This document shows positions 1 to 4,351 of a stretch of DNA of 64,000 nucleotides, one piece after another. The stretch's first letter is position 1; the number at the start of each line of letters is the position of its first letter. Source of the DNA: Candidatus Binatia bacterium (lineage in GTDB: Bacteria > Desulfobacterota > Binatia > UBA9968). The position numbers and the translations under genes were made by a program. The notes beneath the pieces were generated by a model. The model made no database searches. It had not been told where the DNA came from and worked only from the letters and a program-made list of their open reading frames with translations. The stretch is taken from positions 529 through 64,528 of the forward strand of contig JBGPIK010000001.1 in the NCBI GenBank assembly GCA_041484845.1. The letters run 5' to 3'.

Positions 1-405
1 TACCAAAAAGCGAAGGAGCTGCTCATCTGCGCTGACAGCGGCGGAAGCAACGGCTATCGGTCGCACCTGTGGAAACGAGAACTACAGAAACTGGCCAGTC
101 AGCAAAGGCTACGGATCACGGTGTGCCACTTCCCACCCGGGACGAGCAAGTGGAACAAGATCGAGCATCGCCTGTTTTCATACATCAGCATGAACTGGCG
201 TGGGCGTCCGCTGACGGATTACCGGACCGTAGTGAATTTGATTGCGTCCACGACGACGAAAACCGGCCTCACGGTCAAAGTTCGGCTTGATAAAAGATTG
301 TATCAGCGCGGCATCAAGATTTCTCAGGACGAGTTGGAGAAGATCGCGCTCCGACCTCACAATTTCCATGGCGAGTGGAATTACACGATCAGGCCCGCTA
401 GCTAA
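1..405 (+). CDS. ISAzo13-family DDE transposase, C-terminal part (5' end outside window)
   Basis: Frame 1 is open from base 1 (..LICADSGGSNGYRSHLWKRELQKLASQQRLRITVCHFPPGTSKWNKIEHRLFSYISMNW..). The HFPPGTSKWNKIEHRLF block is the hallmark C-terminal motif of ISAzo13-type transposases. Stop TAA at 403-405. Confidence 0.85.
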   Translation, partial: YQKAKELLICADSGGSNGYRSHLWKRELQKLASQQRLRITVCHFPPGTSKWNKIEHRLFSYISMNWRGRPLTDYRTVVNLIASTTTKTGLTVKVRLDKRLYQRGIKISQDELEKIALRPHNFHGEWNYTIRPAS

Positions 406-440
406 GAAACTGTCCATATTATTTTGTCACAAGGTCTAAC
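1..440 (+). mobile_element. Right end of an ISAzo13-family insertion sequence (outer boundary approximate)
   Basis: The transposase ORF ends at 405 and a truncated methyltransferase frame begins near 441, so the IS terminus lies in 406-440. The terminal repeat cannot be defined without the left end. Confidence 0.6.
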
Positions 441-644: not shown

Positions 645-1706
645 ATGTATTTAACCTTGGCCAAGATTCAGAATTCTCTTTCCTATCTGGGAAATCTTCA
701 CCCGTTCTTCGGCATCACGTATCTAGTTTGTAAGAAAGGGCAACTGCCGATCGGGAGGAGCAAGCATTTTCCAATAAATAGAGAAGAAGCGGACTTCTTG
801 ACCAAATACTATAAACCGGACGTTACGTCCAAATTCTACTTTCAACCTTTTAGGACTTCCGCGGGCCGTTGGCTCTCACCCAAATATCCATCTTCTGGTT
901 CCCAAAGCACCCGGACAAGAGGCGACTTTGAAAAGGCTTTCATTCACGAGAAGAATACTGATTTGTGGGGCTGGTCCAGGGATTATATAAAAATATTAAA
1001 AGCCAAACTCGCGCGCGACAATACGAAATCGATCCCAGGCTTTTGGCTGGCTGTATGGTTGTTCCGAGAGAAAAACTGGCCGAACAAGACCAACCCAAAA
1101 ACTATCATAGACTCCCTTCTGAGCGAGTTCTCCATCAATGAGGAAGAACGCAGGGAACTGTTTGACCTAAGCGTGCCCGACTCCGCACTAGACCGTTTAC
1201 TAGATGAGAAACCCGGTACCAGCAGAGAGTTGTTGACCATCATTGGGCGACCTCCTGACGCGCTTCCAGAAGTTGGGGGGACTTTACGTTATCTGGAGCT
1301 AGTTGGGATCGGTCCCACGAAATCACTAAAATTCACCCCTGGAGATCGATTAACGGTAATCACAGGAGATAACGGGCTAGGAAAGACTTTCATTCTTGAG
1401 TGTGCTTGGTGGAGTCTCACGGGAACCTGGGCGGGACCGCAAGCGTTTCCTATTAGCCAAGGACAAGAGAAGATCGATCCAAAAATCACCTTTGAGATCT
1501 CAGCGGGGCAAACCGCCTCACAAAAGAAGACCATACGTTATAATTGGGAAACTCAACGCTGGCCAGAAGCGAAAGACAGACCAACAATTCCTGGCCTCAT
1601 TGTATATGCGAGAGTGGATGGCTCCTTCGCGGTTTGGGATCCGGTGCGGCATTTACAACTTGAGAGTCCGCTCGACGGACGGAATCATCTTCTGGTCTTT
1701 TCATGA
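645..1706 (+). CDS. ABC/SMC-like AAA ATPase, N-terminal half (unknown ~210-aa N-domain plus Walker A); ends at an in-frame TGA, probable pseudogene half
   Basis: The ATG directly abuts the methylase stop (TAAATG, 642-647). Walker A is GDNGLGKT. The same frame continues after the single TGA at 1704-1706. Confidence 0.75.
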   Translation: MYLTLAKIQNSLSYLGNLHPFFGITYLVCKKGQLPIGRSKHFPINREEADFLTKYYKPDVTSKFYFQPFRTSAGRWLSPKYPSSGSQSTRTRGDFEKAFIHEKNTDLWGWSRDYIKILKAKLARDNTKSIPGFWLAVWLFREKNWPNKTNPKTIIDSLLSEFSINEEERRELFDLSVPDSALDRLLDEKPGTSRELLTIIGRPPDALPEVGGTLRYLELVGIGPTKSLKFTPGDRLTVITGDNGLGKTFILECAWWSLTGTWAGPQAFPISQGQEKIDPKITFEISAGQTASQKKTIRYNWETQRWPEAKDRPTIPGLIVYARVDGSFAVWDPVRHLQLESPLDGRNHLLVFS

Positions 1707-1724
1707 GACGCGGTCCTAGATGGT

Positions 1725-2525
1725 TTGAATGGAAAGATCGAAGGACTTTTGCGAGATTGGGTCAAGTGGCAACATAGCCCTGATCAATCGACTTTTGATA
1801 CTTTCCGGGCTGTCATGAGGCGGTTGTCCCCTCCTGACATGTCACCGTTGGAACCGGGGGAGCCGATGCGCTTGCCTCGTGAATCCAAGGAGATTCCAAC
1901 GCTGCAGCATCACTATGGGCCTGTGCCATTTCCTCATGAGTCCGCAGGGGTGCGCCGGATAATTACCCTGTCATACCTCATCGTTTGGGCATGGAATGAG
2001 CATCGGATTTATTCGGCGCTCGCGAAAAAAGCGCCACAAAAAAAACTCGTCATTTTGATAGATGAAACAGAGGCCCATCTCCATCCGAAATGGCAACGAG
2101 TGATCTTACCATCTTTGTTAGATGTGACGACCATTCTCTCGAAAGAAATTCAACCCCAGATGATAGTGACTACCCATTCCCCGCTTGTGCTGGCCTCCTT
2201 GGAAACAGTCTTCTCTCAGGCCGAGGACAAACTATACCATCTCCATTTGGCAGATTCCGGAGACGTTGAATTCAAGGACTTGCCGTTCATTCGGTTGGGT
2301 AGCGTTGATGACTGGCTTACATCTGCTGTTTTCGAACTTAAGCAACCGCGTTCGCGTGAGGCAGAAGACGCGGTGGAAACCGCTAAAAACTTGATGGCAC
2401 AAACTGATCCAGAAAAACAAGACATCGTATCAGTGACTGATCAGCTCCGGAGAACTTTACCAGCCGAGGATGTTTTCTGGCATCGGTGGGCCTATTTTGT
2501 TGAAAGGAAAGGCATAAGCATCTGA
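1725..2525 (+). CDS. Same AAA ATPase, C-terminal half (Walker B, D-loop/H-loop); frame is open from 1707
   Basis: KKLVILIDETEAHLHPKWQ (Walker B) and MIVTTHSPLVLASL (H-loop region). It shares the reading frame of 645-1706, separated by only one TGA. Confidence 0.75.
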   Translation: MNGKIEGLLRDWVKWQHSPDQSTFDTFRAVMRRLSPPDMSPLEPGEPMRLPRESKEIPTLQHHYGPVPFPHESAGVRRIITLSYLIVWAWNEHRIYSALAKKAPQKKLVILIDETEAHLHPKWQRVILPSLLDVTTILSKEIQPQMIVTTHSPLVLASLETVFSQAEDKLYHLHLADSGDVEFKDLPFIRLGSVDDWLTSAVFELKQPRSREAEDAVETAKNLMAQTDPEKQDIVSVTDQLRRTLPAEDVFWHRWAYFVERKGISI

Positions 2526-2698
2526 TTCCAGTATCTCTGCAACCGGAACCTTCCTTCTTTGAGCAGCGCGTCAGACGACCTGGGCAATCCTTTTTGCGGT
2601 CGAATCCAAGACCAACAAGTCACCAATTTAAAAAAAAGAATTATTGGCGGGAGTGCCTTCCTGAACTGAGACTGGCATACTCTGAAATCTGCGTTTAC

Positions 2699-2925
2699 CT
2701 TAACGTTGCATAAAAATCCCAGGTCGATGGCCGCGAGAGGCCGATCTGGCGGGGGCTTGAGCCAGATCAGGAGCCTCCAGCTGGACTTCACCAAAAGTGA
2801 ACTCTAGGGAGAGGTAGAAAGTTAAGCGAAAGTATCATCACAAATATTTCAACATTCATAGGTATTTCGGTGCTCGCGGTTACGTGGATTGAACTGTCAG
2901 AACCCGAATTTTATGCAACGTTAAG
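2699..2925. mobile_element. MITE-like non-autonomous element, 227 bp, 17-bp perfect terminal inverted repeats, 6-bp target duplication GTTTAC
   Basis: TIR-L CTTAACGTTGCATAAAA at 2699-2715 and TIR-R TTTTATGCAACGTTAAG at 2909-2925. Direct repeats GTTTAC at 2693-2698 and 2926-2931. No ORF inside. Confidence 0.75.
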
Positions 2926-2958
2926 GTTTACTCTGCCTGTTGGGTTCCACATGGGACT

Positions 2959-3354
2959 GTGGATCACTTCTGGTCGAAGACTGCGCGGCCCGACCTTGCT
3001 TACGAATGGAGCAACTACCGCTTCGCGGCTGAAAAACTCAACAATTACAAAGGGGAAAATGCAGACGTTTTGGACCCTTTTAGCATCCAAGCCGGCTGGT
3101 TTATTTTGAACTTTGACAATTTCTTTGTTGAAGCTAACCAAGGTCTCTTGCGATCACTCGAAGACGCAGTGAAGAAGACGATTTCCGTTTTGAGGCTGAA
3201 CGCTGATGATGCTCTGGTGAATTGGCGGTTTAGCATAGTCAGAGACTACGCTACGAACGATCTTAGCTTCGGATTCCTCGAGCGAAGGTATCCATTCATA
3301 GCGTTTGAGCTTCAACGCCAGAATCTGACGGAACAGATAAAGCAGAATTTCTAA
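2959..3354 (+). CDS. C-terminal ORF of the interrupted HNH nuclease (as given in the ORF track)
   Basis: DHFWSK..AYEWSNYRF..LNNYKG matches the H-N-N core of TIGR02646-type HNH proteins. It is not an independent gene. Confidence 0.6.
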   Translation: MDHFWSKTARPDLAYEWSNYRFAAEKLNNYKGENADVLDPFSIQAGWFILNFDNFFVEANQGLLRSLEDAVKKTISVLRLNADDALVNWRFSIVRDYATNDLSFGFLERRYPFIAFELQRQNLTEQIKQNF

Positions 3355-3591
3355 AACATCGCCGCCTTTCAGGCTGCTTTAATAGGTGACGTGGCGTATT
3401 CGAGCAAAGACTGTCCCTGCCGCCAATCACGCCTCCATGCGGTTTTTTGGCAAGTCCTACGTAATTCACGGACGTTGTTGCCTAGCTGGAATAAGTCTTT
3501 CACGTGCAGCGTGAGATGGGCGTTTCGACAAGAAAATGTGTCTGGGTCGCCAGGCTTCAAACTTAGGAGGCAGGTTTAGCATCGTACGTTT

Positions 3592-4002
3592 TCACCGAGA
3601 AGCAAACGGGTTGCGGATTCTCAGTTTTCGGTCGATGACCTGTCTATCCTGCAGGTCTTCGGAATACAGGATTTTGCATCCAGCGCGGAGCGCCGAGGCC
3701 AGAATCGTCGCGTCATAAAACGAAAATCCATAACGCTCGGCTATTTCAATACCCAGGTCGTGGGTCTCGATGGTTAGTGGCTCAATCTCACAGACGGCGC
3801 GGATGGGAGCAAGGACATCTCTGATTTCGCTCCACGACATGCCTAACTTGCGCGAGGCGACTGCGGCAAACTCATTAAGAACCTGAACGCTGATAACGCC
3901 GCCATTCGCGATGAGTTCCTCAACCCGGTCAGCCTTGGACGCATCTTCCGAGAGCAAATAGAGCAGGATATTCGTGTCGAAAAACGTCTCAGCGGCGGGC
4001 AT
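3592..4002 (-). CDS. vapC: PIN-domain toxin VapC
   Basis: MPAAETFFDTNILLYLL..VLNEF..FYDATILASA is a PIN-domain pattern. It overlaps the upstream antitoxin by 14 nt. An alternative start lies at 4020. Confidence 0.85.
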   Translation of the reverse strand: MPAAETFFDTNILLYLLSEDASKADRVEELIANGGVISVQVLNEFAAVASRKLGMSWSEIRDVLAPIRAVCEIEPLTIETHDLGIEIAERYGFSFYDATILASALRAGCKILYSEDLQDRQVIDRKLRIRNPFASR

Positions 4003-4222
4003 TGGCCTCAACGCGATCAAACTTGAAATCCGCGGGCAGGCGCCCGCGGTACTTTCTTAAACGCGCAAGCAGCTCTCGAGCGCCGGGCATCTTCTTGATC
4101 TCGAAAAGACGCGCTCCCGCAACATCAATCTCGATGTTGTCACCTTCCTTGAGGCCGAGCGCTTCCACTACCGACACGGGTAAGCGGACAGCCAGGCTAT
4201 TTCCCCATTTACAAACCTGCAT
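3989..4222 (-). CDS. vapB: AbrB/SpoVT-MazE-type antitoxin VapB
   Basis: MQVCKWGNSLAVRLPVSVVEALGLKEGD is the swapped-hairpin AbrB-like N-terminus. The internal ATG at 4222 was chosen over the ORF-track start at 4279. Confidence 0.8.
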   Translation of the reverse strand: MQVCKWGNSLAVRLPVSVVEALGLKEGDNIEIDVAGARLFEIKKMPGARELLARLRKYRGRLPADFKFDRVEANARR

Positions 4223-4351
4223 ATTTACCTCTGAGTCGAAAGATATACATAAGCTCGCTATATATCTACCACGCTCCAATCAACCGCGCAAGATGGAGTA
4301 TCTATAACGAGGCAAGACAATGTACCAGGAGTCTTTTCTCGACACGCCGGG

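Follow-up and report, generated by a model that had tools for sequence, protein, structure and literature searches.

Bacterial MITEs arise from insertion sequences (IS) by internal deletion, as in the IS630-derived RUP of Streptococcus pneumoniae and the cyanobacterial Nezha. The IS1380 family is characterized in ISfinder by elements of about 1.5-2 kb with a single ORF, ends starting with CC and direct repeats of 4-5 bp. IS1247, one of its members, is listed with a 5-bp direct repeat, and in the literature IS1380 itself has served as a distant prokaryotic outgroup to piggyBac, whose target is TTAA. A limited literature search returned no IS1380-derived MITE, which is weak evidence of novelty.

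We have analyzed how ptuB, which encodes the HNH nuclease of a predicted Septu operon, is interrupted within a window of 64 kb (the window is the whole stretch of DNA that was analyzed). Our reading of the locus, which we hold to be very probably correct, is that a MITE derived from an IS1380-family element recently inserted in ptuB and broke it. The element resembles the known bacterial MITEs in its small size, below about 500 bp, its repeats matching those of an IS, a duplication as long as is usual for that IS, the lack of a transposase, its dispersed copies and the disruption of a gene; it is unlike RUP and Nezha in that its parent family is predicted to be IS1380. In every defining respect it is an ordinary bacterial MITE, and the insertion is a clean but ordinary knock-out of a defence gene, unsurprising to a specialist. 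The features of the locus are listed here by window coordinates.

645..2525, forward strand: ptuA, predicted Septu ATPase gene with an in-frame TGA at 1704-1706 (PADLOC PDLC00270)
2522..2697, forward strand: 5' part of ptuB, codons 1-59; start CTG at 2522 or ATT at 2525, overlapping the ptuA stop
2694..2697, no strand: left copy of the target-site duplication, TTTA; length fixed by other copies
2698..2926, forward strand: MITE of 229 bp, predicted non-autonomous internal-deletion derivative of the IS1380 family; ends set by comparison of copies
2698..2718, forward strand: left terminal inverted repeat, CCTTAACGTTGCATAAAAATC; from a repeat search and an 18-mer count
2863..2926, forward strand: stretch of the MITE that stems from the right end of the IS, with the final ~10 transposase codons and the stop codon
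2906..2926, reverse strand: right terminal inverted repeat, CCTTAACGTTGCATAAAATTC when read inward; 20/21 match to the left arm
2927..2930, no strand: right copy of the target-site duplication, TTTA; length fixed by other copies
2931..3354, forward strand: 3' part of ptuB, codons 60-199 and stop; HNH core D70 H71 ... N87 ... N96

From 2693 to 2931 the window reads tgcGTTTAC followed by CTTAACGTTGCATAAAA at the left junction, and TTTTATGCAACGTTAAG followed by GTTTAC and tctgcc at the right, as an earlier sequence-only reading of this DNA had given it. That reading described a MITE-like element of 227 bp, without an ORF and with perfect terminal repeats of 17 bp. The MITE-like character and the lack of an ORF stand, while the length is corrected by comparison of copies to 229 bp, with CC...GG ends; the terminal repeats are indeed perfect, over 18 nt rather than 17, and match at 20 of 21 positions overall. 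A repeat search recovers inverted arms at 2697-2718 and 2906-2927 (22 nt, 95% complementary). The 64-kb window contains the 18-mer CCTTAACGTTGCATAAAA just two times, on opposite strands at 2698 and 2926; the chance expectation with up to 3 mismatches is 0.05 in the window, and none of 100 shuffles reached two occurrences. No ORF of 40 aa or more was found inside the 229-bp element, and a consensus scan found no outward promoter or terminator in it.

When folded as single-stranded DNA, the element is considerably more stable than its shuffled versions (z = -5.3), which could be taken in favour of another kind of insert in ptuB, such as an intron, an insert coding for an intein or a gene for a structured RNA. 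The low fold energy is, however, due to pairing of the terminal repeats, and a search of window positions 2400-3400 gave no relevant Rfam family at E values up to 1. In addition, the length of 229 nt is not divisible by three, a stop follows after 4 codons, and the insert is accompanied by a target-site duplication, by dispersed copies and by homology to both ends of an IS. An insert other than a transposon is thus extremely improbable.

With 233 nt (2699-2931) removed, the two frames become continuous and stay open for 199 codons. This confirms that excision restores the HNH reading frame, as the sequence-only reading had proposed with an estimate of ~197 aa, and the restored product matches PtuB. 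Its match to the PADLOC PtuB profile PDLC00348 (E = 7.2e-63) is a single stretch, 2-195/198, that runs across the junction. The PtuA profile PDLC00270 likewise covers 1-338 and 357-627 of 627 in the two ptuA halves. The NCBIfam PtuB equivalog, of the retron Ec78 type, scores 28 bits against a cutoff of 150, indicating that the protein belongs to a different PtuB subfamily. Judged by the profile matches, the adjacency of the genes and the overlap of stop and start, ptuA and ptuB make up a predicted Septu operon, with the gene pair (PtuA ATPase and PtuB HNH nuclease), the gene order, the stop/start overlap and the profiles of known Septu systems. No second Septu system was found in the bin.

A database search returned 121 homologues, and 14 full-length ones with 43-71% identity were aligned with the restored protein. 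Comparison with uninterrupted orthologues had been suggested in the sequence-only reading, and it bears out the proposed junction: all 14 orthologues lack the insert and align across this point without a gap, with ICVY followed by SACWV in the restored PtuB against the consensus ICAYSACWI. The restored protein also keeps 25 of the 25 residues that are invariant in this alignment, including D70, H71, N87 and N96. The insertion point lies inside codons 58-59. Read without removal of the element, the frame continues from V58 and Y59 through L, N, V and A to a TAA inside the left repeat; the HNH core is encoded beyond the insertion and has no in-frame start that links it to the N-terminal part. 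The interrupted ptuB is thus predicted to yield only a 63-residue N-terminal peptide (59 residues plus LNVA).

One of the homologues (P0006) led to an ENA contig, L124, that represents a natural empty site, without exactly the 233 nt (229 + 4) in question. Up to the insertion point, L124 and the window align over 2256 nt with 96.3% identity, and past this point their identity is 93.7%; the site reads TGTGCGTACTCT in L124 and TGCGTTTACTCT in the window after removal. L124 has CGTA at the position of the window's TTTA, and for this reason we infer, rather than read directly, the pre-insertion target of the window lineage. The residue at the site is Val (GTT) in the window lineage and Ala in L124 and in 13 of the 14 orthologues, so the TTTA target would owe its existence to a derived Ala to Val change in the window lineage.

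L124 carries an intact ptuA of 626 aa and, directly upstream, a full DNA methyltransferase gene of 226 aa; a methyltransferase gene occupies this position next to Septu in both genomes. Relative to L124 the window has three lesions, one in each gene: ptuB holds the MITE, ptuA a nonsense codon and the methyltransferase gene an IS. These three independent lesions, in or beside the operon, and the methyltransferase gene upstream set the window apart from known Septu systems. The TGA at 1704-1706 splits ptuA into two ORFs and corresponds to AGA (Arg) in L124; by this comparison it would be an A-to-T nonsense change, or else a consensus error, but not a TGG-to-TGA change. The methyltransferase gene is cut at about window position 436 by an ISAzo13-family IS (Pfam PF07592, E = 1.8e-59). 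The 5' part of this N6/N4 methyltransferase is found on contig C638 (1-141), with the IS at window 1-436; the ends of this ISAzo13-type element read ...TGTGACAAAATAATAT.GACA, and its flanks have TAA in common. With the MITE in ptuB and the nonsense codon in ptuA, the Septu system is almost certainly inactive in this genome, and a loss of the defence that it provides would be expected.

The ptuB gene has no ATG, GTG or TTG start; instead, a CTG-ATT at 2522-2527 overlaps the ptuA stop (ATCTGATT). This arrangement suggests translational coupling with a non-canonical start codon. The non-ATG start was also considered as a possible fourth lesion and rejected, since the same CTG-ATT is present in the intact L124 and several orthologues begin with L. 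Just downstream of ptuB, at window 3592-4279 on the reverse strand, are two small, overlapping ORFs that, judged from their translations, resemble a VapC (PIN) toxin and an AbrB/SpoVT-type antitoxin.

The MAG from which the window comes totals 7.03 Mb and is split into 644 contigs, the shortest of 2545 bp; its contamination is 7.75%. A count of copies across the genome, which the sequence-only reading had put forward as a check on its proposal, gave three copies of the window-type MITE (that on the window's own contig C1, one on C65 and one divided between C508 and C33) together with a diverged derivative on C79. Apart from the window copy, the elements are as follows.

C65, 12396-12624: MITE copy, 93.4% identity to the window copy, flanks TTAA / TTAA
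C508 (left part) and C33 (right part): MITE copy, 100% and 98.6% identity, flanks TCTT / TCTT
C79, 13558-13765: derivative of 208 bp, diverged from the window copy, flanks without a match
C53 at 20980 and C124 at 13107: solo right ends

The C79 element retains IS 1-123 plus 1568-1646. These deletion breakpoints differ from those of the window MITE, and C79 is thus an independent deletion derivative of the same IS. The solo ends on C53 and C124 were considered as full elements but are only fragments, and an IS1380-like ORF at the end of C53 was rejected as a partner because it lies 1.6 kb from the solo end and is too divergent.

The quality of the assembly raises the question of whether the MITE was mis-assembled into ptuB, or is present in only a sub-population. 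The MAG is fragmented and contaminated to the extent given above, and other copies of the repeat do break contigs, as at C508/C33. The window copy, by contrast, lies 3.2 kb into a contig of 73 kb, where the sequence to its left and right is unique, and it is bordered by a perfect 4-bp duplication, as are the independent copies; a chimeric join would not make one. We therefore consider an assembly artefact or minority variant very unlikely.

Eight contig edges of the MAG are the ends of a larger IS, four of them left ends (C533, C429, C399, C171) and four right ends (C457, C342, C293, C56), and their identity to the MITE halves is 84-86%. Some of them can be paired by a 4-bp duplication, C171 with C293 by TTTA and C429 with C56 by TTGA. 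The first 18 nt of the right end of this resident IS are the same as both MITE ends, whereas its left repeat differs from that of the MITE at 3 of the first 8 positions. Given these differences and the 84-86% identity of the ends, the true parent may be another, unassembled IS. A tblastn search of the MAG with a related transposase gave no match to the interior of the resident IS, and k-mer walking from the contig ends gave no continuation into it; this is what one would expect of a multi-copy IS when the contigs of a MAG are cut off at 2.5 kb.

When metagenomes were scanned with the left end of the IS, one contig was found, L125 (Ga0075283_1003611), which holds a full-length IS of 1646 bp at 361-2006. 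Its ends are 98.6% and 95% identical to the contig-edge ends of the present genome. MITE positions 1-142 align to 1-143 of this IS with 84% identity and positions 166-229 to 1583-1646 with 86%, while the 23 nt between the two parts have no match to it. The left part corresponds to the terminal repeat and untranslated leader, and the right part to the last ~10 residues of the transposase and its stop. The IS right end of the present genome translates to ...GRLTLTLGLNDTVRATLLHYLGALGYAA and a stop, matching the C-terminus of full-length transposases (...GKLTLTMNANPRVKKGLLHYLDRLQRAA and a stop). The single long ORF in the L125 IS spans 458 codons and is interrupted once, by an in-frame TAG at a position that is Gln in relatives; the transposase of this IS scores 232.5 bits on the NCBIfam IS1380 model NF033539 (cutoff 180) with coverage of 2-416/419. 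The flanks of the L125 element show no matching duplication (TTTA vs TCAA) and each of them matches, at about 85%, a separate contig of the present genome (C133 and C394).

Whereas the sequence-only reading could not assign an IS family from the terminal repeats, the transposases of relatives score above the NF033539 cutoff and place the putative parent of the MITE in the IS1380 family, an assignment in which the transposase is scored on relatives and not on a copy from this genome. The full-length elements recovered in the course of this work agree with the family in size (1518, 1541 and 1646 bp), in having one long ORF each, in their CC...GG ends and in their 4-bp duplication.

The distribution of related elements was followed by scanning the right-end 17-mer in a collection of species-representative genomes, which gave at least 113 loci. 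By our own estimate about 70 matches are expected by chance, and therefore only loci with paired ends were used. Most 17-mer loci are in MAGs labelled Nitrospirae/Nitrospirota, and others are in MAGs with the labels Deferribacteres, delta proteobacterium, Desulfobacterales and Desulfobacterota. A first scan of the same genome-contig collection with the left-end 20-mer gave no match. By length, the elements with paired ends fall into two groups: full-length ones, of 1518 bp (7 copies, in one long-read MAG) and 1541 bp, and many short ones of ~210-260 bp. The 1518-bp element (L045 3120-4637) encodes an intact transposase, with 227.6 bits on NF033539 (cutoff 180) and a match to Pfam PF13701 at 5e-40, and has the same right end as the resident IS. 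The short elements of other genomes have only their termini in common with the window MITE, indicating that MITEs arose repeatedly in this clade. Many 213-bp MITE copies are present in the MAG WFVK01, and L079 982-1195 is a short example. A search of 60 relatives revealed only an 80-nt remnant of the IS left end, with 80% identity, in one relative (G008). This remnant (L002 1500-1580) is found upstream of a gene for a tripartite tricarboxylate transporter receptor-like protein and has no right end nearby; the relative that carries it belongs to the same family.

These copies also settle the length of the target-site duplication. The sequence-only reading had given a 6-bp duplication, GTTTAC, but comparison of copies shows the true length to be 4 bp (TTTA); in the window it looks like 6 bp because the flanking G is the same as the last G of the element and the flanking C the same as its first C. 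The number of nucleotides removed (233) and the restored frame are identical under either model. The 4-mers that flank the other copies in the MAG are TTAA at C65, TCTT at C508/C33, TTTA at C171/C293 and TTGA at C429/C56. In other genomes, 19 of 48 paired elements show a duplication that is exact at 4 bp, against 0-3 for other lengths; with shuffled partners the number is 5 on average and 13 at most. A 6-bp duplication occurs in none of the 48 pairs and was rejected for the present genome as well, where the copies fit 4 bp: the 6-mers at C508/C33 are GTCTTC and GTCTTG, and C65 also fails. A 2-bp duplication with ACC...GGT ends was likewise rejected, as the left end of C508 has a T where this model calls for an A, and as 4-mers that are not palindromes occur as direct repeats.

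Across the 48 flanks the four target positions are T in 44, T in 32, A in 29 and A in 39, which is TTAA-like. The exact duplications among the pairs comprise TTTA (five), TTAA (three), TTGA (two) and others, a relaxed preference and not a strict TTAA. That several are non-palindromic (TTTA, TTGA, TGAA, TAGA, ATAC) identifies the four bases as duplicated target and not as part of the terminal repeat. A single IS1380 clade with the terminus CCTTAACGTTGCATAAA thus inserts at TTAA-like targets and makes 4-bp duplications. Its members, from uncultured environmental lineages (MAGs labelled Nitrospirota and Desulfobacterota), are like the IS1380 family, as known from IS1380, IS1247 and ISEcp1, in having a transposase above the cutoff, a single ORF, a length of 1518-1646 bp, CC ends and a short duplication. 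The clade differs from the named members in its strict 4-bp duplication at TTAA-like targets and in a terminus that we could not match to a named IS.

With piggyBac the clade has in common a 4-bp duplication at a TTAA-type target and termini that begin CC(C); it differs from piggyBac in the lack of a sequence match to solved transposases and in its relaxed target, which includes TTTA, TTGA, TGAA and TCTT. A comparison of the transposase with solved structures, piggyBac included, gave no detectable sequence similarity. These likenesses bear on a reading in which a piggyBac-related transposase cuts the MITE out precisely and so turns ptuB, and with it Septu, on and off. IS1380 transposases are distant prokaryotic relatives of piggyBac in the literature, the duplication and target of the clade are of the kind just described, and clean removal with one copy of the duplication restores a frame that keeps every invariant residue. 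The operon, however, has other, irreversible lesions: with a nonsense codon in ptuA and a methylase gene cut by an IS, excision alone would not restore the system, and together with the missing similarity to piggyBac structures this makes a reversible switch highly improbable at this locus. We know of no IS1380 member for which precise excision has been shown. A broader form of the proposal would make the whole clade with terminus CCTTAACGTTGCATAAA a precisely excising prokaryotic counterpart of piggyBac, whose MITEs act as reversible switches, here on the Septu nuclease, and form independent families in several uncultured phyla; this too we consider distinctly improbable.

We return to the simpler reading, a recent insertion that broke the gene. 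A recent date is suggested by the perfect duplication, the perfect repeat of 18 nt, a sister copy at 98.6-100% identity and the lack of an excess of derived changes in ptuB. Relative to L124, 17 of 26 codon differences in ptuB are nonsynonymous, as against 18 of 60 in ptuA (Fisher p = 0.004). When the amino-acid changes in ptuB are polarised with outgroups, 8 are derived in the window lineage and 9 in L124. Relaxed selection after insertion was accordingly rejected as the source of the ptuB excess, which is split between the two lineages and gives no sign of post-insertion decay.

The MITE would have formed when an IS1380-family IS lost about 1.44 kb, nearly the whole of its transposase gene, leaving the left 143 nt and the right 64 nt with a 23-nt stretch of unassigned origin between them. 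Such an element would be unable to move alone, and its transposase would be supplied in trans by the resident IS or by a closer, unassembled relative. Since both MITE ends are identical to the 18-nt right end of the resident IS, which is present in at least four copies, trans mobilisation by that IS is likely. The sequence-only reading had also called for mobilisation in trans, and the absence of an ORF together with the identity of the ends lends weight to this view. By the route expected of a DDE transposase, a staggered 4-bp cut would be made at a TTWA-type target; the MITE ends would then be joined to it, and gap repair would leave TTTA on both sides.

These results explain the split ptuB, which should be annotated as a pseudogene with a mobile element of exact boundaries and not as two orphan ORFs. 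For transposon biology they add an IS1380-derived MITE, as predicted here, and a clade that inserts at TTAA-like sites, which is of some interest given the kinship of this family to piggyBac. For the organism, the locus presents a defence island dismantled by mobile DNA, with three lesions in the methylase-ptuA-ptuB segment that is intact in a 96%-identical relative.
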